This document shows positions 3,173-52,488 of a DNA stretch of 64,000 nucleotides, piece by piece (within the stretch, counting starts at the first letter, position 1; every line of letters begins with the position of its first letter). The position numbers were made by a program, and so were the translations under genes. The stretch is from positions 2,727,788-2,791,787 of the forward strand of contig OZ253480.1 of NCBI GenBank assembly GCA_965261895.1. The letters are read 5' to 3'. This DNA is from an uncultured Candidatus Binatia bacterium (GTDB taxonomy: Bacteria; Desulfobacterota; Binatia; UBA9968; JAJDTQ01). Under the pieces are notes generated by a model, which had not been told where the DNA came from, did not search any database, and saw nothing but the letters and a program-made list of their open reading frames with translations.

Positions 3173-3193
3173 GGGCGGGTTTGAAACCCGCCC
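3173..3193. repeat. Solo 21-bp core palindrome GGGCGGGTTTGAAACCCGCCC (same core as the MITE family)
   Basis: Perfect inverted repeat between the large-subunit start and the small-subunit stop. The adjacent CCTAC supplies the small-subunit TAG stop (3194-3196). Confidence 0.8.
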
Positions 3194-3670
3194 CTACGAG
3201 CGCATCCGCTCCGCCGCCTGCTTGACCGCCTTGATGATGTTCAGATAGCCGGTGCAACGGCACAGGTTGCCGGAGTAGGCCCGGCGGATCTCCTCGTCGG
3301 ATGGGTCAGGGTTCTCGTCGAGAAACGCCACCGTGGTCATCAGCATGCCGGGGGTGCAGAAGCCGCACTCCAGTGCGTCGCATTCCCAGAACGCTTCCTG
3401 GATCGGATGCAGCTCTCCGTTCGGGGCCAGGCCTTCCACCGTGCGGATCTCCGCCCCGTCGGCCCGGGGCGCCAGCACCTGGCACGATTTCACGGTGAGG
3501 CCGTTCATGATGACGGTGCAGGCGCCGCAGTTGCCGGTGTCGCAGCCCACGTGAGTGCCCTTGAGGCCGGCCTTGTCGCGGATGAGATCCACCAGCAGGA
3601 GGCGCGGCTCCACCTCGAACGAGTAAGCCGTTCCGTTGATGGTGGTGTGGACCGTGATCCGTTGCATCAA
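3194..3670 (-). CDS. [2Fe-2S]-binding small subunit of molybdenum hydroxylase (CoxS-like)
   Basis: 158 aa with a plant-type ferredoxin motif ([11 protein letters not shown]) and a second cluster motif (CGFCTPGM...CRCTGY). Confidence 0.9.
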
Positions 3671-3727
3671 CCGTCATCCGTGAAGGGAACCCATTCGGAC
3701 TGCCTGTTGTCGAATGGCTTGACCCGC

Positions 3728-3968
3728 AAATCCAAACCCTCTCCCTTTTGGGAGAGGGTGGCCTGGTTCCGTCCCAAATCCAACCCCTCTCCCTTTGGGA
3801 GAGGGTGGCCGAAGGCCGGGTGAGGGCGCCCCAACAGCCCTCGTTGTCCCATTCCTTGCCGCATCCAAACTGGCAGCTTTCATCGGCGGACCCTCACCCC
3901 AACCCTCTCCCAGAGGGAGAGGGGGTCGGAGGCTGCTTTCTCCAAAACCAGAGAGGGGGTCGGAGGCG
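3728..3968. repeat. Tandem REP-like hairpin repeats (unit about 47 bp; palindrome CCCTCTCCC-TTTT-GGGAGAGGG) in the coxM-like/coxS-like spacer
   Basis: Palindromes at 3735-3761, 3782-3808 and 3901-3933, plus a half copy at 3947-3968. Units start with CAAATCCAA(C)CCCTCTCCC. Seen only at this locus in the window. Confidence 0.75.
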
Positions 3969-3987
3969 TTGCGGAAGAGGTTTTCCT

Positions 3988-4875
3988 TCAAGATACCGGC
4001 CCCTCGTCCAGCCGCGCATGGGCTCTTTCCCGCGCCCGGGTCAGGGCCCGGGTGACCACCACCGGGGTCATTTCCCTGCGGTACTCCGCGGACGCGTGAA
4101 CGTCGCTCACCGGATCCGCAGCCTTTCCGGCCAGCGCGGCGGCTTCCGCCAGGTCGGCGTCCGTCAGCTTCGTGCCCCGGAGCGACCGGCCCGCGGCTTC
4201 ACAGACGAGGGCCGTGGGGCCGACCGCGCAGAGGGCGACGCGGGCATCGCTGCAGGAGCCGTCCGGCGACAGGCTCACCAGCGCCGCGGCACCCACCACC
4301 GCGTAGTCGCCGGCCCGGCGCGTGAGCTTGATGTAGGCGTGGCCCCAGACACCTGCCGGAACCGGGACGTCCACGGACGTTACCATCTCGTCATGGGACA
4401 GACAGGTGTCGAACGGACCGGAAAAGAAATCGTGGGCGGCGATGGTGCGGCTTCCGCCGGCGGATCGGGCCGTCAGGGTGGCCCGTAGTGCCAGCACCGC
4501 GGGGGCGAGGTCGCCCGACGGGTCCGCCTGGCTCAGGGTGCCGCCGAGGGTGCCGAGATTCCGGATGTGGATGTCGCCGATGCTCGCGGCGGCCTCGGAA
4601 AGGAGCGGCTGACGCCGCAGGAACGTACGTTCAAGGGTCCGCTCGGTCACCAGCGCGCCGATCCGCACGGAATCCGCGTCCTCTGTTACGTCGGTCAACT
4701 CCCGGAGTCGTCCGATGTCGATGATCACCCGCGGCCGAATCAGCCTCAGCTTCAGCATCGGCAGGAGGGACTGCCCTCCCGCCATGAGCCGCGCCTCTTC
4801 GCCATACTCGCGGAGCAGCGCGAGCGCTTCGGGAATCGAATCCGGCGCCCGGTACTCGAAGGGAGGGGGGATCAT
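3988..4875 (-). CDS. FAD-binding medium subunit of molybdenum hydroxylase (CoxM-like)
   Basis: 295 aa with FAD-binding PCMH-type motifs (MAGGQSLLPMLKLRL). Confidence 0.85.
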   Translation of the reverse strand: MIPPPFEYRAPDSIPEALALLREYGEEARLMAGGQSLLPMLKLRLIRPRVIIDIGRLRELTDVTEDADSVRIGALVTERTLERTFLRRQPLLSEAAASIGDIHIRNLGTLGGTLSQADPSGDLAPAVLALRATLTARSAGGSRTIAAHDFFSGPFDTCLSHDEMVTSVDVPVPAGVWGHAYIKLTRRAGDYAVVGAAALVSLSPDGSCSDARVALCAVGPTALVCEAAGRSLRGTKLTDADLAEAAALAGKAADPVSDVHASAEYRREMTPVVVTRALTRARERAHARLDEGPVS

Positions 4876-4890
4876 TCGAAAGGGGGCGCG

Positions 4891-5889
4891 CTACCCGCGG
4901 GAGCGCGCCAGCTTCCACTCCTCTCCGCGAACGGTCTCGTGAAAGAGCTCGTCCACGTTGGGTTCCTTCTTGATCATGCCCTGCTCCCGGGAGTAGCGCG
5001 CCAGGGTCCCGAAGTTGTTGCGGTTGGTGTCGTTGAGCCCGTAGACCCACGGGTCCTCGCCCAGCAGCTCGATCTGCTCCTCCCAGGAGTCCCGGAAGAA
5101 CGCCAGCGGCACGACACGGGGATTGTCCATCCTCCGGTAGGCTGCCTGCTTGGACTTCTCGAACGCCACCATCATGTTCATGGGCACCCAGGGGTGCTTG
5201 TCCACGATCTCCTGCTTGATGACCGTGGTGTGCATGATGGGAAAGATGCCGGTGCGCTGGAAATAATCGAGCTCGACCTTCTTGGGATCGTCGAAGATGC
5301 GCTTGACCCGGGTGTCGCCCTCCAGGACCGGCGCGATGATGTCGGGATAGATGACGGCATCCAGCTCGCCCTCGGCGAGCATCTCCTCGACCCGCTTCCC
5401 CTTGGGAAGGCGTTCCATCCGGAGACCTTCCGGCGGATCGAAGGGGACGTCCTCTTCCTTCTCGGCCCGCCATTCAATGTCCTTGAAAGAGACGCCGTAC
5501 TCGTCCTGCAGGGTGCCGCGGATCCACAAGAGCGCCGTGGCTTGCCAGTTCTTGAGCCCCACGGTCTTGCCTTTAAGGTCCTTGGGCTCCTGGATGCCCT
5601 TGTTCGCGTTGATGAAGATGAAGCCGTGGCGGAACCGGCGGTGGAGAAAAACCGGGATGGCCGTGAGATCGTCCGCCTCGCCCCGGTCCTTGGCCAGCAG
5701 ATAGGACGAGCCCGATTGCTCGGCGACGTCGAACTCGCGGAAACGCGACACGCGCCAGTGCCGCGTGGACGAGTCCATGTCCGTCAGCACGGTGAGCTCG
5801 ATGCCGTCCGGCTGCACCGTTCCCTCCTTGAGGGCCCGGATACTCTCGTAGTCGCCGCAAGCCAGTGTCAAATGAAGTTTCTCGGCCAT
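4891..5889 (-). CDS. PhtD/4,5-dihydroxyphthalate decarboxylase-like protein (NMT1/THI5 periplasmic-binding-like fold, no signal peptide)
   Basis: ORF 4891..6009. Probable start is the ATG at 5889 (MAEKLHLTLACGDYE) with a GGAGG RBS. It is a paralog of 47265..48257. The stop lies 15 bp upstream of the coxM-like start, suggesting one operon. The functional name is inferred from family resemblance only. Confidence 0.55.
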   Translation of the reverse strand: MAEKLHLTLACGDYESIRALKEGTVQPDGIELTVLTDMDSSTRHWRVSRFREFDVAEQSGSSYLLAKDRGEADDLTAIPVFLHRRFRHGFIFINANKGIQEPKDLKGKTVGLKNWQATALLWIRGTLQDEYGVSFKDIEWRAEKEEDVPFDPPEGLRMERLPKGKRVEEMLAEGELDAVIYPDIIAPVLEGDTRVKRIFDDPKKVELDYFQRTGIFPIMHTTVIKQEIVDKHPWVPMNMMVAFEKSKQAAYRRMDNPRVVPLAFFRDSWEEQIELLGEDPWVYGLNDTNRNNFGTLARYSREQGMIKKEPNVDELFHETVRGEEWKLARSRG

Positions 5890-5954
5890 TTCGTTACCTC
5901 CGAAGTCTCGCGCGGCCTGGAACCCCGGGAGCCAAAAGCCGCTGGAATACGAGG

Positions 5955-5981
5955 TTGTAGGGGCGGGTTTCAAACCCGCCC
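5955..5981. repeat. Solo core palindrome (TTGTAGGGGCGGGTTTCAAACCCGCCC)
   Basis: Same 21-bp palindrome as 3173..3193, in reverse orientation. Confidence 0.8.
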
Positions 5982-6033
5982 GCGCCCGCATTGCGCCGTC
6001 GCCCGACACGGGCCGGCAGCGCGGAGTATCCGT

Positions 6034-6735
6034 TCAGTCGATGGCGAGCCGTTTCGCCCGCCGCACGAAATAGTCCCACATGCTGCCCAGCCGGTGCGGC
6101 GTGTAGATCTGGTCGTACTTCTCGCGCGCCTCCTCGTCGTTACTCCAGGTGGGATCTCCGGCAGCGGCGGCAAGGAGCTGTATGCGACACGCCTTTTCCA
6201 GAAAGATCGCGTACAGGGTGGCGGTCTCCACCGATTCGGCCACGACGGTGGAGCCGTGGTTTTTCATCAGCACGGCCCGGTACCCTTCCAGCTTCTTGGC
6301 CAGCTCCACCCCCAGCTCGGGCGTCCGGATCAGGATCGTGGTGTAGTCGAAGAGCGGGAGCCCATCGTGGAAGATGGAACCCTCGTGGCTCACGGGGCGC
6401 AGCGGCTGTCTCAGGGAGCCGAATGCGGTGGCGTAGGGCGGATGGCTGTGGATAACGCAGTTCACGTCCGGCCGCGCCCGGTAGATCTCCGTGTGGATGA
6501 ATACCTCGGAGTGGCGCTCGTAATCGCCCTCGATCTTGTTGCCGTCGAAGTCCACCTTGATGATGTGGTACGGGCGGATCTCCTCGAAGCCGTAGCTGTG
6601 GGGCTTCATCAACATGACGTTCTCGCCCGGCACCCGGGCCGACACGTGCCCCAGGATATTGTCCCAGTGCCCTTCGAGGGCCAGGATGTTGCACGAAATC
6701 GCCACCTTGTCTCTCAACGCTACCAAGTCGTCCAT
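6034..6735 (-). CDS. Class II aldolase/adducin-domain protein
   Basis: 233 aa with conserved aldolase II metal-binding histidines (HSHPPYATA). Confidence 0.75.
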   Translation of the reverse strand: MDDLVALRDKVAISCNILALEGHWDNILGHVSARVPGENVMLMKPHSYGFEEIRPYHIIKVDFDGNKIEGDYERHSEVFIHTEIYRARPDVNCVIHSHPPYATAFGSLRQPLRPVSHEGSIFHDGLPLFDYTTILIRTPELGVELAKKLEGYRAVLMKNHGSTVVAESVETATLYAIFLEKACRIQLLAAAAGDPTWSNDEEAREKYDQIYTPHRLGSMWDYFVRRAKRLAID

Positions 6736-6750
6736 GAAACCCCCTTGAAA

Positions 6751-6888
6751 GTCCTTCGACTCCGCTCCGCTTCCTTCGACTCCGCTTCGCTACGCTCAGG
6801 ACGAACGGTTGTGGAAGGCCTCTCTCCGTTCGTCCTGAGCGTAGCGAAGCGGAGTCGAAGGAAGCGGAGCGGAGCGAAGTCGAAGGAC
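6751..6888. repeat. 138-bp near-perfect hairpin (about 58-bp arms, 17-nt loop) between the aldolase start and the CoA-ligase stop
   Basis: The left arm gtccttcgactccgctccgcttccttcgactccgcttcgctacgctcaggacgaacgg is reverse-complementary to 6826-6888. The arms also contain an internal direct repeat. Confidence 0.8.
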
Positions 6889-6897
6889 CGCATTATC

Positions 6898-8442
6898 CTA
6901 TCCCCTGAGCTTGAACCGCTGTATCTTGCCAGTCACCGTCTTGGGCAGATCGTCCACGAATTCCACCCAGCGCGGGTACTTGTACGGTACCAGACTGCCC
7001 TTGACGAAGTCCTGCAGCTCCTGGGCCAGCCCGTCGGCGCCGTGGTGCTCGGTCTTGAGGATGACGTAGGCCTTGGGCTTGATGAGGCCGTCGGCGTCGG
7101 CCTGTCCGGTCACCGCCGCCTCGAGCACCGCCGGATGCTCCATCAGCGCGTTCTCCACCTCAATGGGCGAGACCCACAGGCCGCCCACCTTGAGCATGTC
7201 GTCGGAGCGGCCACAGTACCAGAAATAGCCGTCGTCGTCCCGATAGTACGTGTCGCCGGTCTTGAGCCACTCCCCGAGCATGGTGCGCTGGGTCTGCTCG
7301 TGTTTGTTCCAGTAGTAGGGTGCGGTGGCGTCGCCGCTGACGTACAGGTTGCCCACCTCGCCGTTGGGCACTTCACGTCCCTCGTCGTCCACCACCTTGG
7401 CCACGAAGGCCGGCGTCACCTCGCCGCTGCTTCCCGCCTTTGCCCGTCCCGGCCGGTTGGCGAGGAAATCGTGGGTCGCCTCGGTGGAGCCTACGACGTC
7501 CAGCAGCTCCACGCCGACTTTCTCCCGCCACTGGTTGAAGAGGGCCGGCGGCAGCGGCTCTCCGGAGGACAGGCAGACCTTCAGCGAGCTGAGGTCGTAC
7601 TCCTTCTCCACCCGCAGCATGCGGGCGTAGAGCGTCGGCACCGAGAAGAAGAAGGTGGGCCGGTACCGCTCGATGGTTTGGAGTATTTTTTCCGGATCCG
7701 GCCGTTCGGGCCACAGCACGCCGGCGGCTCCGAAACGGAAGGGGAAGTAAAGGGAGTTCCCCAGCCCGTAGGAAAAGAACAGTTTGGAGGCGGACAGGCA
7801 GACGTCGTCCTCGGTCATGCCGAGCACGGGCTTCACGAACAGATCGGTGATGGTGATCATGTCGTGCTGGAGATGGACCGCGCCCTTGGGGTTGCCTGTG
7901 CTCCCCGAGGTGTAGTTCCACATGACGACGTCGTCGCGTCCGGTGGGTTCCGCTTCGAGCTCCGCGGACTGGCCCTCCAGCAGGGCGTCCCAACCCATGG
8001 CGCTACCCCGCGGGGTTCCCACCACCACCACGTGGCGCAGGTGGCGCGGCCTTTCGCTGATGGCCTCGATCTCGGGCAGCGCGGACTCGTGCACCACGAC
8101 GATGCGAGCCCGGCTGTCGTTGAGGAGGTACTCGTAATCCCCGGCCTTCATCCAGGGATTCACCGGAATGGGGACGGCGCCGATCTTGATGGCGCCGAAG
8201 AAGCTGAAAGCGAACTCCGGGCAGTCGGGAAGCACCAGCAGGACGCGCTGTTCCGTGTCAAGCCCGAGTCCGCGGAATGCGTTCCCGGCGCGGTTGACCG
8301 CCTCCTGGACCTGCCGGTAGGTGATCCGCTGGTCCTCGTACAGGATCGCGGTGCGCTCGCCGCGGCCGGCGGTGACGTTGTCGTCGACGAACGTGGTGGC
8401 CGCGTTGTAGGGGTCCGGCAGTTCGAGTCGCGGAGCGCTCAT
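6898..8442 (-). CDS. AMP-dependent aryl/acyl-CoA synthetase (benzoate-CoA ligase-like)
   Basis: 514 aa with the AMP-binding motif YTSGSTGNPKG and C-terminal GKIQR. Confidence 0.8.
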   Translation of the reverse strand: MSAPRLELPDPYNAATTFVDDNVTAGRGERTAILYEDQRITYRQVQEAVNRAGNAFRGLGLDTEQRVLLVLPDCPEFAFSFFGAIKIGAVPIPVNPWMKAGDYEYLLNDSRARIVVVHESALPEIEAISERPRHLRHVVVVGTPRGSAMGWDALLEGQSAELEAEPTGRDDVVMWNYTSGSTGNPKGAVHLQHDMITITDLFVKPVLGMTEDDVCLSASKLFFSYGLGNSLYFPFRFGAAGVLWPERPDPEKILQTIERYRPTFFFSVPTLYARMLRVEKEYDLSSLKVCLSSGEPLPPALFNQWREKVGVELLDVVGSTEATHDFLANRPGRAKAGSSGEVTPAFVAKVVDDEGREVPNGEVGNLYVSGDATAPYYWNKHEQTQRTMLGEWLKTGDTYYRDDDGYFWYCGRSDDMLKVGGLWVSPIEVENALMEHPAVLEAAVTGQADADGLIKPKAYVILKTEHHGADGLAQELQDFVKGSLVPYKYPRWVEFVDDLPKTVTGKIQRFKLRG

Positions 8443-8491
8443 GCTCGTTTCAATTCGGAGCCCGTACCGGCCGACAGCGCGATACGGGCGC

Positions 8492-8512
8492 GGGCGGGTT
8501 TGAAACCCGCCC
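8492..8512. repeat. Solo core palindrome GGGCGGGTTTGAAACCCGCCC
   Basis: Perfect 21-bp inverted repeat followed by CTACA. Confidence 0.8.
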
Positions 8513-8562
8513 CTACACTCTCGCCTTCCTGCGGCGTCGACACCTGGCGGGACGGGTTCGGG

Positions 8563-10020: not shown

Positions 10021-10227
10021 CGAACGAACTCTCCTCGTGTATCTTGATTTGCAGCCCGCGGGACTTGGCCGGAATTTTGCGACCGAACCGGAGAGGGTCC
10101 GTTTCGGCGAATTTTCGTCAGTCGAAGGCTGAAACAGAATGAACCACGTCAGCGCAGGCCTGTCAAGGAACCGTGTTGACCGGACCCGGGGCATTCTGTA
10201 TCAATAAGTCGGGTAGGAGCGATTCAA

Positions 10228-10515: not shown

Positions 10516-10560
10516 ATCCGAAAGACCCCCGTGTTCCGGGGAGGGCGACCTCGGAACACG

Positions 10561-15100: not shown

Positions 15101-15289
15101 CTAGTGTGGTGTGTCACAAATACGGTTATGAAGATGCGAGGGCATTTTGGTTGTCGGCAAGGCGCGATGACTTGTAGGGGCGACCGGCGGTCGCCCCCCA
15201 GTGGCGTGCACCACGCGAGGAAGAGCAACGCAGCCGACGGCCAAAAGGACCCGCAGATTCATAACCTTATTTGTGAGACACCACACTAG
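15101..15289. mobile_element. MITE copy A (189 bp; TIR CTAGTGTGGTGTGTCACAAATAC; core variant GGGCGACCGGCGGTCGCCC)
   Basis: Terminal inverted repeats ctagtgtggtg...caccacactag. It sits between the TctA-family gene and the DUF1989 gene. ORF-track entry 15104..15289 is its translation. Confidence 0.8.
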
Positions 15290-15304
15290 ATTCAGGGAGG
15301 GCCA

Positions 15305-20097: not shown

Positions 20098-21249
20098 GTG
20101 AACGAGATGCGGTTCATCGCTGTCCGGTTCTGGCTGATCCTGATCTTGGGAGGCGGTCGCCAGGACTCTCTTGGTGTCACATGCCGGGTTTACTGCTTCT
20201 GCCTGGCGACGGCCCTTTTGTGTCTCTTGCCCGGGCCGGTGCAGCCAGCCTCGCTGGACGACGAGTTCGTTACCTCCAAGCGTCACTGGGCCGTCACCGA
20301 CACGAAGTTCGAGCTCTCGTCCAAGCGCTATCGTCTCAACAAGAATGTACGGCACCCGCAACCCGTCATCCTCATCCACGGCCTGTTGGTGAACAGCGGC
20401 TTCCTCGACTTTGGCGGCGCCAGCCTGGCCGAATACCTGGCAGAGGCGGGGTTCGACGTCTGGAACCTGTCGCTCCGAGGCACCGGCCGGAGCCTCAGCC
20501 CTCTGGGTTGGGGGCAAAAGCCCTGGACCCTGGACGAAATCCTGAAGGACGACCTCCCGACGGTCATCGGATACGTCAAGAAGACCACCGGTAGCGCGAA
20601 CGTCTTTCTGGTGGGTTACGAGCTGGGCGGGGCGTTGGCCTTCGCGCATGTCGGCAAGGATCGAGAGCACGGAGTCGCCGGGATCGTCGGCATCGCCTCG
20701 CCGATGTCCTTCGACAGCCCCGAGCAGGACCGGCTCGACGTCCTGGTCAAGCTCGACCGCCAGCCGGTCCTGCGTAACACCCTTCTCTATGCGAACTCGT
20801 CCGGGCTGAACCGGTTTCTCTTCATGGTTCCCGGGTTCGAGGACACTTTCTACAATCCCGGGAACATGACGGAGCGGGTCAAAAAAGAGTTGCTGGAATC
20901 CCTCCTGGTCTCGGTCAACCCCGGCGTGCTGGATCAACTCATTACAACCGTGAACAAGGACGAGTTCGTCTCCGCCGACGGCGCTTCCAGCTACCGCGAC
21001 ACGCTGTCCGAAATTCGTATCCCGGTTCTCCTGATAGGGGGCGCGGCCGACCCCATCGCACCGCCGGAAGCCCTGAAAAAGCTCTACTCGGAGCTTGGCT
21101 CGGAGGACCGGGACCTCATGATCTTCTGGTCGGATCCCGACGAGGACATCAGCTACGGCCATTTCGACCTGATTCTCGGGAAGAACGCCGAAGCCGACGT
21201 CTTTCCGCTCGTCCGGGGATGGCTCGAATCCAGAAGCCTGTCCCAGTAG
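20098..21249 (+). CDS. Secreted or membrane-anchored alpha/beta-hydrolase fold protein
   Basis: 383 aa with an N-terminal hydrophobic segment. The HGLLVNSG oxyanion region is present, but the nucleophile elbow reads GYELGG (Glu where Ser is expected). Confidence 0.6.
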   Translation: MNEMRFIAVRFWLILILGGGRQDSLGVTCRVYCFCLATALLCLLPGPVQPASLDDEFVTSKRHWAVTDTKFELSSKRYRLNKNVRHPQPVILIHGLLVNSGFLDFGGASLAEYLAEAGFDVWNLSLRGTGRSLSPLGWGQKPWTLDEILKDDLPTVIGYVKKTTGSANVFLVGYELGGALAFAHVGKDREHGVAGIVGIASPMSFDSPEQDRLDVLVKLDRQPVLRNTLLYANSSGLNRFLFMVPGFEDTFYNPGNMTERVKKELLESLLVSVNPGVLDQLITTVNKDEFVSADGASSYRDTLSEIRIPVLLIGGAADPIAPPEALKKLYSELGSEDRDLMIFWSDPDEDISYGHFDLILGKNAEADVFPLVRGWLESRSLSQ

Positions 21250-21368
21250 GCGAATCGTAGCCGATTCGGCTGACTCGCCCAGGTTCCTGGGGACCCACCT
21301 GAATCACCGCTCCCAAAACCTGAATCACCGCTCCTAAAGATTGGCCGTCCGGTGCCGACAATCTTTTT

Positions 21369-24922: not shown

Positions 24923-25111
24923 CTAGTGTGGTGTCTCACAAATACGCTTATGAAGCTGCGAGGGCATTTTGGTTGTCGGCAAGGCGCGATGACTTGTAGG
25001 GGCGGGTTTCAAACCCGCCCGTGTGGCGGGCACCACGCGAGGAAGAGCAACGCAGCCGACGGCCAAAAGGACCCGCAGATTCGTAAGCGTATTTGTGAGA
25101 CACCACACTAG
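24923..25111. mobile_element. MITE copy B (189 bp; canonical TIR; core GGGCGGGTTTCAAACCCGCCC)
   Basis: ctagtgtggtgtctcacaaatacg ... cgtatttgtgagacaccacactag. Confidence 0.85.
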
Positions 25112-25293
25112 TGTCCTGTCCGGTTAATTCGCATGGTAAGATGCGCAGGATTTTTCGTCGTCGACAAGGCGCGATGACGTGTAGGGGCGACCGGCGGTCG
25201 CCCCCGTGGCGGGCACCACGCGAGGAAGAGCAACGCAGCCGACGAGAAAAAGACCAGCAGATTACCGTGCGAATTGACCGGACAGGACACTAG
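25108..25293. mobile_element. MITE copy C (186 bp; alternative TIR CTAGTGTCCTGTCCGGTTAATTCGCA; same core family), tandem to copy B and sharing one CTAG
   Basis: ctagtgtcctgtccggttaattcgca ... tgcgaattgaccggacaggacactag. The internal segment is near-identical to copy A. Confidence 0.8.
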
Positions 25294-25301
25294 GGCGTGG
25301 A

Positions 25302-28529: not shown

Positions 28530-28740
28530 CCCGCTTGGGTACGGGAATGGCACCGACACCCGCATTGTCATTCCCGCGCAAGCGGGAATCCAGGGGTGTG
28601 GAGGGGGCAAACGGGCATGCCTCCCCGCCCCACCCCTCCTGGATTCCCGCTTTCGCGGGAATGACGATTTCGGGGGTCGTTACCTCTCTCGGATGGCGTT
28701 TTGACACACCCTGTTTCGCGGGAATGACCCATGCCGGGCC
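28530..28740. repeat. Cluster of family-2 palindromic repeats (GTCATTCCCGCG-MAAG-CGGGAATCCAGG; ATTCCC-N8-GGGAAT type)
   Basis: Copies at 28567-28594 and 28638-28665, with a half copy at 28713-28728. An approximately 92-bp unit is nearly identical to 55132-55223. Confidence 0.75.
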
Positions 28741-33648: not shown

Positions 33649-33669
33649 GGGCGGGTTTGAAACCCGCCC
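33649..33669. repeat. Solo core palindrome GGGCGGGTTTGAAACCCGCCC
   Basis: Perfect 21-bp inverted repeat followed by CTACAC, 20 bp upstream of the GST start. Confidence 0.8.
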
Positions 33670-33689
33670 CTACACGGAGGTAACGCAAC

Positions 33690-35153: not shown

Positions 35154-35378
35154 GGATTCTCTCCAACGACGCGAGAACACCGGGCGGCGCACAAACAGGG
35201 CTCTAAAACACGATAACAACACGCCGGCGTTTTTGAAACGCCCGAGCTCGTCCCCTGAACAGGGGTTCATACGGACTCGGTGTCTTCGGCTTCGACGGCC
35301 CGCGGCCGAAAAAGCCGTTCACGGAAGCATGACAATCCGATAAAAAAGTGCATATATGTGTGCAGCGGGGAGTTCTCA

Positions 35379-35566
35379 GTGGAAGCCAGGGCCGACCGCA
35401 TCAGGAGCCGGTTGGAAAAGGATGGATGGTTTCTGGCGCGTCACGGATCTGGCCATGACGTTTATAGGCACCCCGTATCAAGGGAATCATTACCCTTCCG
35501 CGGCACAAGACATTGTCACCCGGCGTCGTCCGCTCCATCGCAAGAAAGGCTGGATGGCCGGAATGA
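35379..35566 (+). pseudogene. hicA: hicA-like toxin gene interrupted by a frameshift (N-part in frame with hicB, C-part in the -1 frame)
   Basis: From GTG 35379, frame A gives RIRSRLEKDGWFLARHGSGHDVYRHP. Around 35475-35490 the HicA-like C-terminus continues in another frame (ITLPRHKTLSPGVVRSIARKAGWPE, stop 35564-35566). A possible homopolymer sequencing error cannot be excluded. Confidence 0.55.
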
Positions 35567-36298: not shown

Positions 36299-36328
36299 AG
36301 GTCATTCTCCCCTGCGGGTGCGGGCACG

Positions 36329-36437
36329 GGCGGGTTTGAAACCCGCCCCTACAACAGCCCGACCGAACGAATGCGAAGGGACCTTCGCCCGACGAGCCGT
36401 TGCCGTCGGTGACCCCCTACAACAGCCCGACCGAACA
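36329..36437. repeat. Solo core palindrome (36329-36349) plus direct repeat CCCCTACAACAGCCCGACCGAAC (36347-36369 and 36415-36437) downstream of nuoN
   Basis: Seen directly; it lies in the region between convergent genes. Confidence 0.7.
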
Positions 36438-37954: not shown

Positions 37955-37960
37955 ATTGTG

Positions 37961-44311: not shown

Positions 44312-44314
44312 AGC

Positions 44315-44504
44315 CTCAGTGTCGTGTCCCGGAAATTGGCATGATCATTTGCTTGTCCTTTTTACCGTCGGCTACGTTGCTCTTCCTCACGTGGTGGCCG
44401 CCACACGGGCGGGTTTGAAACCCGCCCCTACAAGTCATCGCGCCTTGCCGACGACAAAAATTCCTGCGCAACTAATCATGCCAATTTCCGGGACACGACA
44501 CTAG
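44315..44504. mobile_element. MITE copy D (third TIR variant CAGTGTCGTGTCCCGGAAATTGGCATGAT; core GGGCGGGTTTGAAACCCGCCC) between nuoH and nuoD
   Basis: cagtgtcgtgtcccggaaattggcatgat ... atcatgccaatttccgggacacgacactag. The terminal CTAG (44501-44504) provides the nuoD TAG stop. Confidence 0.8.
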
Positions 44505-45637: not shown

Positions 45638-45681
45638 GATATCATTCCTTCGTCAACCGACCCGATTGCGATGGTGGACGC

Positions 45682-45702
45682 GGGCGGATTTGAAATCCGC
45701 CC
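45682..45702. repeat. Degenerate solo core palindrome GGGCGGATTTGAAATCCGCCC
   Basis: A variant of the core with MITE-like flanks, next to MITE copy E. Confidence 0.6.
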
Positions 45703-45739
45703 CGACAAATCCATCGCGGCACACTGCCGACAAAAGGGT

Positions 45740-45928
45740 CTAGTGTGGTGTCTCACAAATACGCTTACGAATCTGCGGGTCCTTTTGGCCGTCGGCTGCG
45801 TTGCTCTTCCTCGCGTGGTGCACGCCACTGAGGGGCGACCGCAGGTCGCCCCTACAAGTCATCGCGCCTTGCCGACGACCAAAATGCCCTCGCATCTTCA
45901 TAACCGTATTTGTGAGACACCACACTAG
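45740..45928. mobile_element. MITE copy E (189 bp; canonical TIR; core variant GGGCGACCGCAGGTCGCCC) between nuoD and nuoC
   Basis: ctagtgtggtgtctcacaaatacgc ... gtatttgtgagacaccacactag. The terminal CTAG provides the nuoC TAG stop (45925-45927). Confidence 0.85.
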
Positions 45929-46431: not shown

Positions 46432-46480
46432 GTCGTCGCTATCTGCCCGGAAATCCTGCCCGTCCGAGCCGGCTGATGTC

Positions 46481-46669
46481 CTAGTGTGGTGTCTCACAAA
46501 TACGCTTACGAATCTGCGGGTCCTTTTGGCCGTCGGCTGCGTTGCTCTTCCTCGCGTGGTAACCGCCACACGGGCGGGTTTGAAACCCGCCCCTACTCGT
46601 CATCGCGCCTTGCCGACAACCAAAATGCCCTCGCATCTTCATAACCGTATTTGTGAGACACCACACTAG
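46481..46669. mobile_element. MITE copy F (189 bp; canonical TIR; core GGGCGGGTTTGAAACCCGCCC) between nuoC and nuoA
   Basis: ctagtgtggtgtctcacaaatacgc ... gtatttgtgagacaccacactag. The terminal CTAG provides the nuoA TAG stop (46666-46668). Confidence 0.85.
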
Positions 46670-47043
46670 TTCTTCACCCACTCCAGATCGCCCTTGCACC
46701 AGTCGTAGATGAGACCCAGAAACACGATCATGGTGAAGATGGAGATGGCCCCGAACGCAAAAAGTCCCGCGTCGTTCTGAAGCCAGTTGCGGAAGACCAC
46801 GGCCACCGGGAAAATGAAGGCGATCTCCACCTCGAAGATGATGAAGATGAGGGCGATGAAGTAGAACCGGACGTTGAAGTTGACCCAGGCACTCCCGGTC
46901 GCGGGCTCGCCGCACTCGTAGGTCGAGAGCTTTCTGAGCTGGGGATTGTTGGGCCGCAGCAAGCGGCCGATCAACAGGTTCACCCAGACGAAGGCCGCCC
47001 CCAACAACGTGAAAACCAGTACACTGGCGAAGTCGAAAAGCAT
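46666..47043 (-). CDS. nuoA: NADH-quinone oxidoreductase subunit A
   Basis: 125 aa with a NuoA/ND3 signature (STYECGEP). Confidence 0.88.
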   Translation of the reverse strand: MLFDFASVLVFTLLGAAFVWVNLLIGRLLRPNNPQLRKLSTYECGEPATGSAWVNFNVRFYFIALIFIIFEVEIAFIFPVAVVFRNWLQNDAGLFAFGAISIFTMIVFLGLIYDWCKGDLEWVKN

Positions 47044-47264
47044 TTGTCCTCGGGTAAGATAAAGAAATCAATAACCTTTTTCAGAGGGTCTTTATATACA
47101 CAAAAGCCTGTCCCGGTCAACAAACCGGCCGGTGTGCCTCCAGGACAGCCTTACACTCCCCAACCATTCCTGTTAGTTTGCTAACGAGCGGAGGAGGGGC
47201 GCCGATGCGGCTCCCGAGCTTCCGCGCCCGCGACAACCCGACCAAATGGGAGAACTGAACCGCC

Positions 47265-48257
47265 ATGTCCAATGTTAGCATCACCGTCGCCTGTTGGGAC
47301 TATGACCGGACACGCCCCTTGCAGGAGGGCCGCGTCCCCGTGGAAGGGGTCGACCTGACCTACCTGCCGTTCCGCGTGGAGGAAACCTTCTGGCGCATGC
47401 TGCGCTACCAGGATTTCGACGCCGCCGAGATGTCCATGGGGTCCTACCTGATGTCGAAGGACAAGGGAACCCCGCGGTTCGTGGCGATTCCCGTGTTCCC
47501 CTCCCGCGCCTTCCGGCACTCCGGGATCTACATCCACACCGGTTCCGGCATCAAGGAAGCCGGCGACCTTACAGGCAAGCGGGTCGGCGTCCCCGAGTAC
47601 CAGATGACCGCGGCCATCTGGCAACGTGGCATCCTGCAGCACGAGTACGGCGTGGAGCTCGATAAAGTGAACTGGTTCACGGGTGGGGAAGAGACCCCCG
47701 GCCGGGAGGAAAAGCTCCGTCCGGACCTGCCCGAGACCCTCTCCATCACCCCCATCGGCCCGGAACAGACACTGTCCTCCATGCTGGAGAACGGCGACCT
47801 CGACGCCATGATCTCGGCTCACATGCCGTCGCCGTTCGTGCGCCGCTCGCCCAAGGTGGCGCGGCTGTTCCCGGACTTCCGTTCGGTGGAGGAGGACTAC
47901 TTCCGCAAAACGGGCATCTTCCCCATCATGCACACCGTGGTCTTTCGGGAGGACGTGTACGAACGCCATCCCTGGGTGGCCCAGAACCTCTACAAGGCCT
48001 TCTGCGAATCCAAGCGGCTCTGCGCCGAGTCCATGTACGAGTACTCCGCGCTCAAGTACATGCTGGCCTGGTCCATCGAGCAGATGGAGAAGGAGAAGGA
48101 TCTCATGGGACCCGACCCCTGGTCCTACGGGCTGGAGCCCAACCGCCATATCCTGGAGACGCTGGTGGGCTACGCCCACGAGCAGGGCCTCATCAAGCAG
48201 CGGCTCGAGGTGGACAGCCTGTTCGCCCCCAGCACGCTGAACGAGTTCAAGGTGTAG
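47265..48257 (+). CDS. PhtD/4,5-dihydroxyphthalate decarboxylase-like protein (second paralog)
   Basis: 330 aa, clearly a paralog of 4891..5889 (shared KTGIFPIMHT, DPW.YGL blocks). Confidence 0.6.
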   Translation: MSNVSITVACWDYDRTRPLQEGRVPVEGVDLTYLPFRVEETFWRMLRYQDFDAAEMSMGSYLMSKDKGTPRFVAIPVFPSRAFRHSGIYIHTGSGIKEAGDLTGKRVGVPEYQMTAAIWQRGILQHEYGVELDKVNWFTGGEETPGREEKLRPDLPETLSITPIGPEQTLSSMLENGDLDAMISAHMPSPFVRRSPKVARLFPDFRSVEEDYFRKTGIFPIMHTVVFREDVYERHPWVAQNLYKAFCESKRLCAESMYEYSALKYMLAWSIEQMEKEKDLMGPDPWSYGLEPNRHILETLVGYAHEQGLIKQRLEVDSLFAPSTLNEFKV

Positions 48258-48334
48258 CGTCTCTTACAGGAGGCTTGCCGACGAAGAGGCACGGAATGAC
48301 TTGTCACCGGCAGGGCCCGGCCAAGGGTTTGTAG

Positions 48335-48355
48335 GGGCGGGTTTCAAACCCGCCC
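48335..48355. repeat. Solo core palindrome GGGCGGGTTTCAAACCCGCCC
   Basis: Perfect 21-bp inverted repeat preceded by TTGTAG. Confidence 0.8.
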
Positions 48356-48409
48356 GTGCCCAACGACGCGGGTCCGTGCGGCCAGACGAGAACCTTCCAC
48401 GAGAACGCC

Positions 48410-48994
48410 ATGTCCGATCCCGACAAACCCGAAGTTGAATCCCCCGCCACCGAGACAGCGGACGTCGGCGCCGGCGACACCACCGTTCAAGAGGTGAAGT
48501 GGTGGATCGACACAGGAAACAAGCAACAGTCGGAAACGGATGAACGGGTCCCCAAGGGCGTGATCGAGCGCTGGGCCTTCGACCTGCTGAAGGATTACCG
48601 GCAGGAACGGGCGCTGCAGAACATCGTGGATATCAACGGCCAGGTCCTGCGCGAGCTCGGCAACAACGAGGAAAGGTGGGTCTACCTGTCCCTCGGCGTC
48701 GGCGAGTTCCCCCCGAAACGGCTCAACTACATCAAGGATTCGCTGAGAATTCCGCGCTACGCCCGCGCCCTGGCCATTGACGCCGGCTATTCGATCCGTG
48801 TCCTCATCACCGGCAACCCTCCGGGCGAAAAAGTGCTGGACATCAACTTCACCGAAGCTCCGTCCATGGACTACTGGAACAGCGGCGAGCTGATCGAGGA
48901 GCAGATGTTCCGCTCCATCGAGGACGCCCTCAAACGGTTGCGGAACTCGATCCACCGCTACTTGCGCAAGAGCACCGTGGAGACGCAAATATGA
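48410..48994 (+). CDS. Hypothetical protein (about 195 aa)
   Basis: ORF 48356..48994. Probable ATG at 48410 (MSDPDKPEV). The stop overlaps the ATG of a small ORF (48991) leading into the DUF2384 frame. Confidence 0.5.
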   Translation: MSDPDKPEVESPATETADVGAGDTTVQEVKWWIDTGNKQQSETDERVPKGVIERWAFDLLKDYRQERALQNIVDINGQVLRELGNNEERWVYLSLGVGEFPPKRLNYIKDSLRIPRYARALAIDAGYSIRVLITGNPPGEKVLDINFTEAPSMDYWNSGELIEEQMFRSIEDALKRLRNSIHRYLRKSTVETQI

Positions 48995-49130
48995 AGACCA
49001 AGGCCGTGGAGCGTAGGTGCTCTGGCAGGGCTCTTGATGTCCTGACGGAAAGAAGGATTACGGACGAGGAGATCGGCTGCCCGATCATGAAACCCCGACC
49101 CTTTCCTACCAAAAAGCAGGGGGCGGGAGG

Positions 49131-49346
49131 TTGACGGTCGAAGAATCCGACCGCGCGGTACGGGTGGCTCGGGTCATCGCGCTGGCGGAGAGAACTTTCG
49201 CCAACCAGGACAAGGCCCACCGCTGGCTTCACAAGAACCTCGTTGCGTTGGATGATCGCCGGCCCATCGACATGATCCAAACGACAGCCGGAACCCGCTT
49301 GGTTGAAGACATGCTGGCAAAGATCGCCTGGGGCGCAGCGGCGTGA
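49131..49346 (+). CDS. DUF2384 (Xre/MbcA/ParS antitoxin C-terminal domain) protein fragment; the N-terminal part lies in a different frame (48991..49134)
   Basis: TTG start. The FANQDKAHRWLHKNLVALDDRRPIDMIQTTAGTRLVEDMLAKIAWG block matches the toxin-binding domain of RES-partner antitoxins. No RES toxin ORF follows. Confidence 0.5.
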   Translation: MTVEESDRAVRVARVIALAERTFANQDKAHRWLHKNLVALDDRRPIDMIQTTAGTRLVEDMLAKIAWGAAA

Positions 49347-49491
49347 TGGGTCTGTGGGGACTTTGAGACGCCGAGGATGCCGAATGCGATCCAAGGCTCC
49401 TCGCATGGGTTGACCGGGTGGCTCTCCCGCACGTCCATGTGCTTCTTAGGTCTCTTTTTGACTTAGATGGACTCGAAAAAACGCTCTTCGA

Positions 49492-49860
49492 TTACGATCT
49501 CTTCCTTTTCGATCCTGGGCGTCTTAACGCCTGTTCCCTTGCGTCCGCTTCTCTGACTCGTTGGTCTGAATCGAGACTTCGGCCGTGATCGGTTATTGAC
49601 CAAATCCCGCGTCTGCGTTTGTCAACGGCTCCGACATGCTTCAGGCGTGTTCTTGCCCATCCCGCTCTATAATCAAGCTTCGGTTGTCGGCTCTCTCCCT
49701 GAAGCTCCTCGAGGACCTCATCGGAAAGCTCCATGATCTCAGCAATCTCTTTCGAGATCTCCTGGACCGAAGCAGACCCGCCAGTCTTGACCAGGGCCTG
49801 CAATGTAGGCCACATCAAGTCGATTTGTGTTGGCATTCTGTGGTTGCTCACGTGAATCAC
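49492..49860 (-). CDS. Stand-alone Mrr N-terminal winged-helix domain protein (no nuclease domain)
   Basis: 122 aa with the family block IDLMWPTLQALVKTGGSASVQEISKEI...YRAGWARTRLKHVG...RGIWSITDHG. It lies in the lower-GC stretch. Confidence 0.55.
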   Translation of the reverse strand: MIHVSNHRMPTQIDLMWPTLQALVKTGGSASVQEISKEIAEIMELSDEVLEELQGESRQPKLDYRAGWARTRLKHVGAVDKRRRGIWSITDHGRSLDSDQRVREADAREQALRRPGSKRKRS

Positions 49861-49867
49861 TATTCAC

Positions 49868-50653
49868 TCAAGCAGATACGCGACTGAGAATCTTTCGCTC
49901 AAGATCGCCGGTCGATTCGAGCGAAGAGACCATTTCCCCGCCCACATCTGACAACCGTGCAAGATCCAGTCGTGGGATCTCTGCCTGATCTTCAAAGACC
50001 AGTATGGAATCGAACTTGAGACTATTCCGGTGGAAGTGTGACAGTATGATAGTGGTAAGTCGGGCCTTGTCTCGGTTCGGAATGCCGTAGAGGAACAACG
50101 GTCGATCATACCGTCCCTCAATTCTGTAGTCGACAGGGTAGGCTTGGGGATTCGGCAACCCCTCCGGCAGATAGTCGGCCTGTATCTTGTCCTCGTCGAT
50201 CCGGCTCTTCAGAAAGTCGGCAAGGTCGTCGTAGAAGGTCGACCTGACACGCGATCGAGACAAAAACGTCAAATCGTGGATTCTCGTCAACGCTTGTCCA
50301 AAGCGGAAGATAGCCTCAGGCAGCCGTTCGATAGGAGCATCCACATGGAACGCACCGCCATCCCGCTCGATTCCAGTCTCGCCGACGATGCGCTCCAACA
50401 GCTCTCCCCGCGCACCTTCCAGAAACGAGTCAATATCGTGGTCGTAGCTGAGGTGCGTGAGAGTATGGCCGCTATCCGACAGGCGAATGCCTCCGGTACC
50501 GGCTTCCGAGACATGCATCGGGAACCGGTCTCCGTCGGGAAACTCAAATTGCGTACGCAACATTAATGCGCCGTCAGGCCGTTCCGTTAGCTGAACATCC
50601 TCGCACAAACGTTCACACAAGAGCCGCTGCAGCGCATTTGTGTTGATCGGCAT
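49868..50653 (-). CDS. Hypothetical protein (261 aa), second gene of a coupled pair
   Basis: ORF 49868..50704. The ATG at 50651-50653 overlaps the TGA of the upstream gene (ATGA). Lower GC than flanking genes; no recognisable motif. Confidence 0.5.
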   Translation of the reverse strand: MPINTNALQRLLCERLCEDVQLTERPDGALMLRTQFEFPDGDRFPMHVSEAGTGGIRLSDSGHTLTHLSYDHDIDSFLEGARGELLERIVGETGIERDGGAFHVDAPIERLPEAIFRFGQALTRIHDLTFLSRSRVRSTFYDDLADFLKSRIDEDKIQADYLPEGLPNPQAYPVDYRIEGRYDRPLFLYGIPNRDKARLTTIILSHFHRNSLKFDSILVFEDQAEIPRLDLARLSDVGGEMVSSLESTGDLERKILSRVSA

Positions 50654-51126
50654 CAGAGTAACCTCGGGTGATCGTGGGCCGCAGTAAGTCCGACGACGTT
50701 GCAATCGTCAATCAGACAGGCCAATGCCCCCTCCAGGGTTTCGTAGCGACCCGTTTCTTCCGCTTCGCGTTCTGGCTTCAGCCCAGCCGCGATCGCTCTT
50801 TCCGTCGCCCGGTGGATATGTACCCGATAGTGTATGTCGCCGTGTTCGTGCCCCGGGCCGTTGTAGCGGGCCAGTGTGAGTCTGGAGCCGTCCAGGGCGA
50901 CGTAGACGATCCCGCAGGAGAAGTCCGACTGATCCAACAGACCCTCGCGTTGATAGATCTCGAATCGAGATTCCTCTCCCCCCTCGCCTACGGCCTTGAA
51001 CGATCGTTGCTTGTGAACCGGTGCTACGGTCGGCTTTTCCGACCATCGTGAGTTTACATTGGATACCCGTTTGCGCACGGAACGAAGTCGGTCCAACTCT
51101 TCGTCCGTATATAGCCGTTGCACCAC
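50653..51126 (-). CDS. Hypothetical protein (157 aa), first gene of a coupled pair
   Basis: ORF with a His-rich segment (YNGPGHEHGDIHYRVHIH). Lower GC; no recognisable family. Confidence 0.5.
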   Translation of the reverse strand: MVQRLYTDEELDRLRSVRKRVSNVNSRWSEKPTVAPVHKQRSFKAVGEGGEESRFEIYQREGLLDQSDFSCGIVYVALDGSRLTLARYNGPGHEHGDIHYRVHIHRATERAIAAGLKPEREAEETGRYETLEGALACLIDDCNVVGLTAAHDHPRLL

Positions 51127-51266
51127 GTCTTCAACCAGCCTGGCCGAATTCCGATATCACAGTCGGCTCGTCGATGGATAGCCGGTGAAATCGCTCATGC
51201 TGCTCGACACGCAAGCGAAACTGCCTAGCGACAACTACGGGCCACTTCTTTGTCCCGGCCACCGGG

Positions 51267-52376
51267 TCAACCGGCGGCGCCGCCCCGCCGGATGGTGCCG
51301 GGGCGCATGGGGAAGGGGACCGAGTCGGTGATCTCCAGGCCGTAGCCGGAGAGGCCCACGAGGTTTCTGGGGTTGTTGGTGACGAGCCGGAGCTTGCGCA
51401 CGCCCAGGTCGCGCAGGATCTGGGCGCCGATGCCGAAGTCGCGGAAGTTCCTGGCCTCTCTGGCTTCGGCGGTGCGCAGGCCCTTGCCTTCGGGCTGGAG
51501 GTAGAGCAGGACGCCCGCGCCTTCCTTGGCGATCAACTCCATGGACTGCTTGATGACCGACCCGGTGTCGAAGAACTCGAAGCCGAACACGTCGCCGGGG
51601 AGGAACTTGGTGCACACCCGCACCAGGGTCTCGCGGTCCTCGGAGATCTCACCCTTGATGAGGGCCAGGTGCTCGGCGGAATCCACGTGGGTGTTGTAGA
51701 CCACTGCCCGAAACTCGCCGCCGTAGCGCGTCGGCAAGCGGGTGGTGGCCACCCGGTGGATCAGCGAGTCGTGCTTGAGGCGGTACTGGATGAGGTCGGC
51801 GATGGTGCAGATCTTGAGGTCGTACTTCTCGCCGAACTCCTCGAGGTCCGCCAGCCGCGCCATGGTGCCGTCATCCTTCATGATCTCGCAGATCACGCTG
51901 GCGGGCCTGAGCCCCGCCAGCCGGCAAAGGTCCACGGAGCCTTCGGTCTGACCCGTGCGTACCAGCACGCCGCCTTCCCTCGCCCGCAACGGGAAGATGT
52001 GCCCGGGCGTGCACAGGTCGGCGGGTCCGGCGTCGTCGGCAATGGCGGCGAGGATGGTCTCGGCCCGGTCGGAGGCCGAGATGCCGGTGGTAACGTTCTT
52101 GACGCCGTCGATGGAGACCGTGAACGCGGTGCCGAAGGGCGCCGTGTTGTCCCTCACCATCATGGTGAGGCCGAGCTGGTCGACCTTGTCCTGGGTAAGC
52201 GGCAGGCAGATCAGGCCCCTCCCCCAGGTGGCCATGAAGTTGATGGCCTCCGGGGTGACCAGTTCCGCGGCCATGGTCAGGTCACCCTCGTTCTCGCGGT
52301 TCTGGTCATCCATCAGGATGACCATCTTGCCTTGCCTGATGTCTTCAAGCGCTTCTTCTATGGTGGCTACGGGCAT
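51267..52376 (-). CDS. ribBA: 3,4-dihydroxy-2-butanone-4-phosphate synthase fused to a GTP cyclohydrolase II-like domain lacking the zinc-binding Cys triad
   Basis: 369 aa. The N-terminal DHBP synthase is intact (RENEGDL, TAFTVSID). In the C-terminal domain the expected CxxGC...C pattern reads VCTKFLPGDVFGFEFFDTG. Confidence 0.8.
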   Translation of the reverse strand: MPVATIEEALEDIRQGKMVILMDDQNRENEGDLTMAAELVTPEAINFMATWGRGLICLPLTQDKVDQLGLTMMVRDNTAPFGTAFTVSIDGVKNVTTGISASDRAETILAAIADDAGPADLCTPGHIFPLRAREGGVLVRTGQTEGSVDLCRLAGLRPASVICEIMKDDGTMARLADLEEFGEKYDLKICTIADLIQYRLKHDSLIHRVATTRLPTRYGGEFRAVVYNTHVDSAEHLALIKGEISEDRETLVRVCTKFLPGDVFGFEFFDTGSVIKQSMELIAKEGAGVLLYLQPEGKGLRTAEAREARNFRDFGIGAQILRDLGVRKLRLVTNNPRNLVGLSGYGLEITDSVPFPMRPGTIRRGGAAG

Positions 52377-52467
52377 GGGTTCCTAACCTAACATTTCGCT
52401 TGCCAAGGTCAAAGATGGCGACGGAATCCCCCGGGGCAACTCCGAATCTTCCGCGCGACCGCCACAC

Positions 52468-52488
52468 GGGCGGGTTTGAAACCCGCCC
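52468..52488. repeat. Solo core palindrome GGGCGGGTTTGAAACCCGCCC
   Basis: Perfect 21-bp inverted repeat. The adjacent CCTAC supplies the pyrF TAG stop (52489-52491). Confidence 0.8.

Follow-up and report, generated by a model that had tools for sequence, protein, structure and literature searches.

The 64,000-nucleotide stretch of an uncultured Candidatus Binatia bacterium analysed here (contig OZ253480.1, positions 2,727,788 to 2,791,787; below, the window) carries a perfect 21-bp palindrome, GGGCGGGTTTSAAACCCGCCC, at dispersed sites. We consider, with a probability of roughly 0.8, that this 21-mer is the stem-loop of a GTAG-tagged repetitive extragenic palindromic (REP) sequence, that is, GTAG followed by GGGCGGGTTTCAAACCCGCCC within the frame GTAG-GGGC...GCCC(-CTAC), that it is one of a large family of REPs whose partners are a clade of RayT (REP-associated tyrosine, HUH-Y1) transposases, and that its spread, its lending of stop codons and its action as an RNA barrier follow the steps proposed below. 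The original prediction, made from the nucleotide sequence alone, had called the palindrome a solo REP-like element. This description is upheld, as the size and stem of the unit, its tag, its extragenic location and the use of its TAG as a stop agree with the defining features of GTAG-tagged REPs. The 21-mer is among the most widely shared REP sequences seen so far, and the most interesting part of the analysis is its identity across phyla together with an in-frame, co-varying copy inside the RayT genes.

The window contains 10 exact copies of the 21-mer, against none in 100 dinucleotide-preserving shuffles, which confirms for the window the predicted excess over chance. Seven of them are solo copies (starts 3173, 5961, 8492, 33649, 36328, 48335 and 52468), while three form the core of a 189-bp miniature inverted-repeat transposable element (MITE; starts 25000, 44407 and 46572). 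An eleventh copy, GGGCGGATTTGAAATCCGCCC at 45682-45702, was recovered when up to 3 mismatches were allowed; it carries two complementary changes that keep the stem paired. This copy had been overlooked among the eight solo sites listed previously. Six of those eight are exact as they were given, and the seventh, placed at 36329-36349, really occupies 36328-36348. The eighth, a supposed degenerate copy at 35218-35240, is not a member of the family: it was not recovered at up to 3 mismatches, differs by eye at about 7 of 21 positions, has no CTAC tag and folds only as a weak, unrelated GGCGTTTTTGAAACGCC hairpin (-10 kcal/mol, z -1.4) upstream of a CN-hydrolase gene. The copies are spaced by 0.9-25 kb in mixed orientations, and a clustered regularly interspaced short palindromic repeat (CRISPR) array was rejected on these grounds. 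Their density is 11 in 64 kb in the window (0 expected) and 4 in 21 kb of a related genome.

In its G-centred form the palindrome is directly followed by CTAC(A) in 10 of the 11 copies. The remaining one, at 45682, has CGAC, which is CTAC in the sister strains represented by loci L138 and L140. The central base and the flank together orient the unit, the other strand of which reads (T)GTAG followed by GGGCGGGTTTCAAACCCGCCC. The flank opposite the tag is mostly GYGCCC and shows no complementarity to the tag. The resulting 25-nt unit has a GC-rich stem of 9-10 bp and a 3-nt loop. The RNA folding energy is about -17 to -18 kcal/mol (centroids) for the bare hairpin and -19 to -27 kcal/mol when its flanks are included; as single-stranded DNA the hairpin folds at about -11 kcal/mol. 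At none of the window sites do the 12 nt after the hairpin, read on the transcribed strand, contain a T-run; the hairpin thus lacks a U-tract and was rejected as an intrinsic terminator. Rfam and tRNA scans of the window gave no match, hence it is not a catalogued RNA family.

Neighbouring open reading frames (ORFs) were placed by Pfam scans and real start codons. Once these starts are applied, all eight non-MITE copies are intergenic, as had been claimed: six lie between co-directional genes (3173, 5961, 8492, 45682, 48335 and 52468), one between convergent genes (36328) and one between divergent genes (33649). The unit at 3173..3197 (minus strand; hairpin 3173-3193, tag 3194-3197, CTAC on the plus and GTAG on the minus strand) follows a coxS-like gene, with the start of a coxL-like gene at 3137, 35 nt further on. 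The unit at 5957..5981 (plus; GTAG at 5957-5960) separates a class II aldolase gene (minus, stop 6034) from a binding-protein gene (minus, start 5889), and that at 8492..8516 (minus) separates an aldehyde dehydrogenase gene (minus, stop 8563) from an AMP-ligase gene (minus, start 8442). Between groES (minus) and a GST gene (plus, start 33690), the divergent-gene copy occupies 33649..33673 (minus), about 20 nt 5' of the GST ribosome-binding site. The convergent one, at 36328..36352 (minus), lies between a hypothetical gene (plus, stop 36298) and nuoN (minus, stop 36470). The variant copy, with its compensatory A:T pair and CGAC tag, is found between nuoC and nuoD at 45682..45706 (minus). The last two solo units are located at 48331..48355 (plus), between a binding-protein gene (plus, stop 48257) and a hypothetical gene (plus, likely start 48410), and at 52468..52492 (minus), between pyrF and ribBA (start 52376).

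A perfect 21-bp palindrome with one copy in a divergent promoter region (33649) could also be the operator or binding site of a dimeric DNA-binding protein, of the regulon or partition type. We regard this as extremely improbable: most copies follow a gene or separate functionally unrelated genes of an operon, the unit with its tag on one side only is asymmetric, and the compensatory stem change at 45682 points to a constraint on the hairpin rather than on the duplex sequence. The spread across phyla and the link with RayT genes, described below, also speak against an operator.

At two sites the TAG within the tag is itself a stop codon, that of the coxS-like gene (3194-3196) and that of pyrF (52489-52491). 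This had been proposed previously; the coordinates agree, and both proteins end where their PDB homologues end, being neither truncated nor extended. The recurring N-terminal extensions in the list of ORFs are likewise explained as had been suggested, since mechanical ORF calling reads through the repeat (giving, for example, RGGFQTRP). These spurious extensions are thus accounted for, and the real stops of the coxS-like gene and pyrF are fixed. For a wider view of the stop overlap, GTAG-first copies in GC-rich loci were examined in 119 loci from other genomes, using ORFs filtered by GC content at third codon positions (GC3). The distance from the tag TAG to the stop of the upstream coding signal shows a spike at 0 (9 of 120), with every other single distance represented at most 3 times. 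Among the ORFs that reach the tag, 9 stop in frame at it, 2 others continue past it to a stop within about 40 nt, and in a further 2 the copy is truly intragenic. The overlap thus recurs in genomes of several phyla. These counts are conservative, because the test missed one of the two window cases. A crude frame control for the overlap was uninformative, as long spurious ORFs are abundant at 63% GC, and the GC3-filtered test was used instead. That the tag TAG can be the stop of a flanking ORF has already been described for GTAG REPs (Di Nocera 2013, PMC3733652) and is not new.

Two further stop codons in the window can be mentioned here. An unrelated GTAG with a 7-bp hairpin at 21246-21268 provides the TAG stop of the ORF 20098-21249, and may be a chance match. 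An acrB-like gene (window 55285-55305, compared with L221:1585-1640) stops at the same position in the window and in the Candidatus Binatia chromosome OZ244869.1, the stop being TAA plus a 16-nt stretch in the former and the TAG of a full REP in the latter. Either the REP has decayed in the window or it was inserted beside a pre-existing stop, and the site was rejected as a filled/empty pair because it is not a clean one.

In published descriptions, a REP consists of a GT(A/G)G head joined to a perfect palindrome that is rich in GC and has a centre of 2-4 nt (Nunvar 2010, PMC2817692), and the GTAG-tagged superfamily includes the Stenotrophomonas SMAGs and the REPs of Pseudomonas and E. coli (Di Nocera, De Gregorio & Rocco 2013, PMC3733652). 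The element of the window resembles this superfamily in its size class (20-40 bp), its unpaired GTAG at one end, its GC-rich stem (6-13 bp in the superfamily) and its loop (2-4 nt). It also shares the sub-families with complementary stem changes, the occasional copies within ORFs, the intergenic location mainly between unidirectional or convergent genes, the tag TAG serving as a stop, and the presence of the tag in more than 90% of copies, which the superfamily requires (here 10 of 11). However, the copies here are almost all singletons and not dimers or clusters, and the identical 21-mer occurs in far more phyla than any reported family. The exact stem was not found in the searchable text of the literature (figures with 24 family consensus sequences were outside this comparison), and literature searches for the 21-mer and its encoded peptides returned nothing relevant. 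REPINs (Bertels & Rainey 2011) are also built from REPs and also persist vertically for long periods at fixed sites, but a REPIN is an inverted REP doublet with a short spacer, whereas the copies here are singletons thousands of bases apart. No inverted pair of 21-mers was found within hundreds of bases in the window; the nearest neighbours, at least 0.9 kb apart, mostly have the same orientation. A REPIN was rejected for want of such a closely spaced inverted pair.

A scan for the exact 21-mer with one genome per species yielded at least 119 stretches, the lineages of which were counted from the record titles. At least 20 phylum-level lineages are represented. They include Chloroflexota classes, Binatia, Thermodesulfobacteriota, Myxococcota, Nitrospirota and several Pseudomonadota classes, as well as Bacteroidota, Actinomycetota, Bacillota, Planctomycetota, Omnitrophota, Deinococcota, Acidobacteriota and others. 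Roughly 75% of the copies in other genomes are tagged at both ends (GTAG...CTAC), those of the present genome at one end. MITE-like matches appear in no more than a handful of the loci that were fetched.

In 2 of the 119 loci (L017 and L080), an IS200-like ORF lies beside or around the 21-mer. Both ORFs match Pfam Y1_Tnp and, below its cut-off, NCBIfam REP_Tyr_transpos. The best match in PDB is TnpA-REP of E. coli (4ER8), to which both the HUH and the Tyr motif align, and the homologues are named RayT by JGI. The RayT genes considered here form one large clade (L017:4463-4909, L080:649-1263, L134:10001-10546, L135:8801-9436 and L141-L220). Judging from homology to 4ER8 and the alignment of both catalytic motifs, proteins of this clade are predicted to bind and cleave single-stranded DNA carrying the GTAG hairpin. 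An exact 21-mer is present inside the RayT ORF in L080, L134 and L135-L137, and 18-38 nt upstream of it in L017 and L134. In L080, two copies of the 21-mer are followed by a T-run and may be terminators there. As in the REP-RAYT systems, or REPtrons, described previously (Nunvar 2010; Ton-Hoang 2012; Messing 2012), the HUH and Tyr motifs are accompanied by matches to 4ER8 and NF047646, and the RayT genes found elsewhere are flanked by cognate GTAG REPs within about 20-100 nt (for example L017 and L134). Unlike in those systems, the clade also has a cognate REP in frame inside the ORF, in either orientation and sometimes in two copies. In L080 (646-4145), the RayT-like ORF shares 16 nt with the end of another ORF, of 965 aa, that resembles by eye an SNF2-type helicase, and the two may form an operon.

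An exact hexapeptide encoded by the 21-mer occurs in 81 of the 120 best RayT homologues, and AG(L/F)KPA or GGF(Q/E)TR is located between the HUH motif and the RHGLxEIVRAxK helix in 71 of these 120. The internal peptide is found in either orientation (L in 45, F in 36) and sometimes twice. It is not a search artefact, because the query's own insert is in another frame. In an alignment of the homologues the peptide also appears at both termini of the protein, where the ORF extends into flanking REPs. A census of the exact 21-mer found it in only 10 of 77 RayT loci; since the internal REP varies, a generic GTAG-hairpin detector was used. With this detector, a perfect hairpin with a GTAG tag was found within the ORF in 55 of the 77 metagenomic RayT loci, in every case between +237 and +396 nt (median +276). 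The density of GTAG hairpins is 1.58/kb within the RayT ORFs compared with 0.06/kb at more than 300 nt from the gene. The inner stem varies between RayT loci while GGGC...GCCC is kept, and the internal stem is identical to the flanking REP stem in 20 of the 28 loci that have both.

On this basis we tentatively propose, at somewhat less than even odds, that this REP belongs to a family in which each RayT gene carries a perfect cognate REP in frame (VGAG[L/F]KPAPT for the 21-mer), that this copy lies in a permissive linker between the HUH motif and the next helix and co-varies with the flanking REPs, and that it is either the footprint of a cis-acting self-insertion or a selected seed or autoregulatory site. 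A self-insertion footprint would be direct natural evidence that RayTs insert REPs, while a seed site would allow a horizontally transferred RayT to re-found its REP population. If the proposal is true, it would explain how an identical tagged 21-mer comes to be present across the phylum-level lineages listed above. In the literature examined no description of internal REPs in RayT genes was found, which is not proof of novelty.

The solo copies of the window are old, fixed and vertically inherited. Clusters (>90%) of window proteins include 'Deltaproteobacteria bacterium' metagenome-assembled genomes as well as OZ244869.1, a Candidatus Binatia chromosome. The window was aligned with loci of its own genome (L124 and L139), of strains at about 95-99% identity (L120-L123, L125-L133, L138 and L140) and of OZ244869.1 (L221, at roughly 90-95%), and every comparable solo REP site is occupied in every strain genome and in OZ244869.1. 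Change at these sites is slow. The left arm of REP 3173 is shortened in eight contigs (L126-L133). In OZ244869.1, REP 36328 is kept and REP 45682 has diverged, and the pyrF site is uninformative since pyrF there is non-orthologous and on the other strand. Between proS and ribBA this chromosome has a non-orthologous orotidine monophosphate decarboxylase gene in opposite orientation (L221:3513-4337), a gene replacement. To the right of REP 36328, OZ244869.1 (L221) also lacks a 58-69-nt indel (window 36353-36430) that is bordered by the direct repeat CCCCTACAACAGCCCGACCGAAC.

Fixed sites between strains, a very stable hairpin and a location mostly downstream of genes and inside operons might suggest that the repeats are regulatory hairpins evolved by the host (terminators, attenuators or RNA stabilisers), arisen in place or spread by recombination, with no mobile family involved. 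The two L080 copies followed by a T-run are in line with this. Such an origin is nevertheless very unlikely. The independent origin of 11 tagged 21-mers where none is expected is not credible, the U-tract is missing here and one copy (33649) lies between divergent genes. Moreover, the same sequence with its GTAG/CTAC tags recurs in many phyla, and its association with RayT genes is both physical and co-varying.

The 189-bp MITE is a distinct element. It is present in the window at 15101-15290, 24923-25111, 25108-25296, 44316-44504, 45740-45928 and 46481-46669, and in L122 at 1137-1329. An element of the IS630/Tc1 type, it has terminal inverted repeats (TIRs) of about 47 nt and targets CTAG with duplication of TA or CTAG, in an IS630-like manner; the tandem pair 24923/25108 has one CTAG in common. 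Clean empty sites exist in L138/L140 at nuoA/nuoC and nuoC/nuoD (GTCCTAGTTC and GGTCTAGCGCA), the copy at 44316-44504 (nuoD/nuoH) is absent from L221, and in L122 an additional copy occupies the CTAG at the end of a hypothetical gene (36296). The window contains 19 CTAG sites where 217 are expected, an 11-fold deficit. Ten of these sites are at MITE ends, and the non-MITE ones that were checked, 36295 and 41559, are TAG stops. MITEs are therefore found on stop codons because they insert into the rare CTAG, the checked occurrences of which are at such stops. The original prediction had held that the stop overlap of the solo copies mirrors that of the MITEs in the nuo operon. This has to be corrected, since the MITEs hit stops through their CTAG target and the REP through its own GTAG tag, and two similar-looking repeat systems are thereby separated.

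In an alignment of nine MITEs the arms are constant and the centre swaps among three unrelated palindromes. The first is the 21-mer REP, found in three copies at 24996..25020 (plus) in MITE 24923-25111, at 44407..44431 (minus) in MITE 44316-44504, and at 46572..46596 (minus) in MITE 46481-46669 between nuoA and nuoC. The second, in five copies, is another GTAG hairpin, GGGCGACCGSNGGTCGCCC; this second REP type (GTAG followed by GGGCGACCGGCGGTCGCCC) is the core of MITE 15101-15290 at 15174..15197 (plus) and also forms MITE cores at 25181-25204 and 45832-45855, and a near-identical form occurs both in and beside the RayT gene of L179. The third palindrome is the cassette of the MITE copy in L093, and it is also present at window 6760-6874. 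There, it forms the core of a perfect 49-nt inverted repeat (CCGTTCGTCCTGAGCGTAGCGAAGCGGAGTCGAAGGAAGCGGAGCGGAG), which also matches L101.

It is largely settled that the MITE core derives from the REP and that the solo copies are not collapsed MITEs, because the arms are constant while the core swaps, the MITEs are polymorphic while the solo copies are fixed, and the 21-mer is dispersed across phyla. The two elements are alike in overlapping TAG stops and in being palindromic and intergenic, and the MITE has the REP at its centre, but the solo REP has neither TIRs nor a duplication. A solo REP was rejected as a MITE in its own right, the flanks having no common TIR or target-site duplication. 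We consider it highly improbable that the solo copies are collapsed or deleted MITE remnants of which the central hairpin alone survived. Such an origin would fit the identical 21-mer in all three MITE cores of this type and the 36 nt that solo copy 52468 has in common with the MITE core (CCGCCACAC, the REP and CTACAA). But no solo copy has remnants of MITE arms or CTAG duplications alongside, and the swapping of cores between constant arms runs counter to it. In addition, the MITEs are recent, as seen from the empty sites in L138/L140 and the extra copy in L122, whereas the solo copies are fixed even in OZ244869.1. REP 45682 exists in L138/L140, strains without the neighbouring MITE, and so predates that MITE. 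MITE-like matches are also confined to a handful of the fetched loci, against the phylum-level distribution of the 21-mer. A composite of about 75 nt, with the REP at its apex and GCCGnCAG/CTGCGGC as its outer stem, is found at window 5938-6013 and 8460-8535, and also at a non-orthologous place in the Binatia locus L004 (1021-1100). A REP may plausibly have entered the MITE by insertion at the apex of a long palindrome, where the DNA is single-stranded.

Several points weigh against the proposal of a RayT-spread REP. The two REP_Tyr_transpos scores, 51.7 and 77.9 bits, are under the 80-bit cut-off. When an E. coli RayT sequence and the two RayTs found here were used as tblastn queries, the only matches were L017 and L080, and no RayT came to light either in the window or in the loci of strains and relatives (about 200 kb). 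Neither was a RayT of the source contig or of OZ244869.1 present among the best 120 matches of two protein searches. No clean empty solo site exists among the strains (95-99%) or in OZ244869.1, and with no polymorphic solo site there is no direct sign of recent mobility here. The effects at the RNA level are, moreover, all ones that we infer. Finally, to our knowledge, RayT-mediated transposition of a REP has never been directly shown in vivo in any system. The internal REP could serve as a built-in label for pairing RayTs with REPs in uncultured phyla, as a natural record of REP insertion events, and as a handle on the co-evolution of REP-RayT specificity and on its survival through horizontal transfer.

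It could also be argued that a genuine REP was multiplied in this genome without a RayT of its own, by hitch-hiking in the 75-nt composite or the MITE, by gene conversion, or by a RayT that has since been lost. This is unlikely, even if the RayT searches found nothing in the DNA of this organism that they covered, two larger repeated palindromes have a REP at their apex, the solo sites are all old, and some strains are known to have lost their REPtron (PMC3733652). The DNA of this genome that could be covered amounts to about 4%, and a genome usually has a single RayT copy (PMC5581495). The tag and stem frame are also exactly those of REPs that flank RayTs elsewhere. The identity, tag, hairpin and positions of the repeat, its overlap with stops, its fixation and its link with RayT genes in other genomes are observed; for the present genome, RayT-driven spread is what we infer.

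The mechanism we propose is as follows. A RayT would act on the hairpin in single-stranded DNA and spread copies, which would land in intergenic DNA, mostly just downstream of genes. Since the tag contains TAG, a copy abutting a gene in the right frame supplies or preserves its stop, as at the coxS-like gene and pyrF. Once transcribed, the hairpin, very stable and without a U-tract, may act as a barrier to 3'-exonucleases. At the coxS-like and pyrF stops it could obstruct the terminating ribosome and so lower the output of the upstream gene, an effect shown for E. coli REPs that lie no more than 15 nt from a stop. According to PMC12306157, which cites Liang 2015, REPs at less than 16 nt from a stop stall ribosomes. 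The arrangement in the window resembles that of the E. coli REPs involved in translation and mRNA stability (Newbury 1987; Liang, Rudd & Deutscher 2015) in that a stable hairpin lies 0-15 nt past the stop within operons (coxS/coxL and pyrF/ribBA). It differs in that the helix here is a perfect GC-rich one of 9-10 bp that starts 1 nt after the stop, and a similar function is suggested by analogy. The prediction that follows is a hairpin-dependent damping of CoxS and PyrF relative to their downstream partners. The CTAG-targeting MITE is a separate element, mobile at present, whose apex has taken up REPs.

Other repeats were also observed in the window. A palindromic family, CCCTCTCCC(T/A)nnGGGAGAGGGTGGCCGAAGGCCGG, is located at 3770-3960 between the cox genes and in L003 at 6040-6135, and is expanded to tandem arrays in the acrB/proS spacer of L138 and L140, around 2950-3400. 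Another palindromic family, GTCATTCCCGCGAAAGCGGGAATCCAGG, occurs at 28566-28728 and 54983-55224 (families D5, D11 and D19), as well as in L120 and L123. Just upstream of hicB, a 192-bp segment (35355-35546) is present in the window, L121 and L122 and absent from L120 and L123; it is possibly a small hicA-like ORF.

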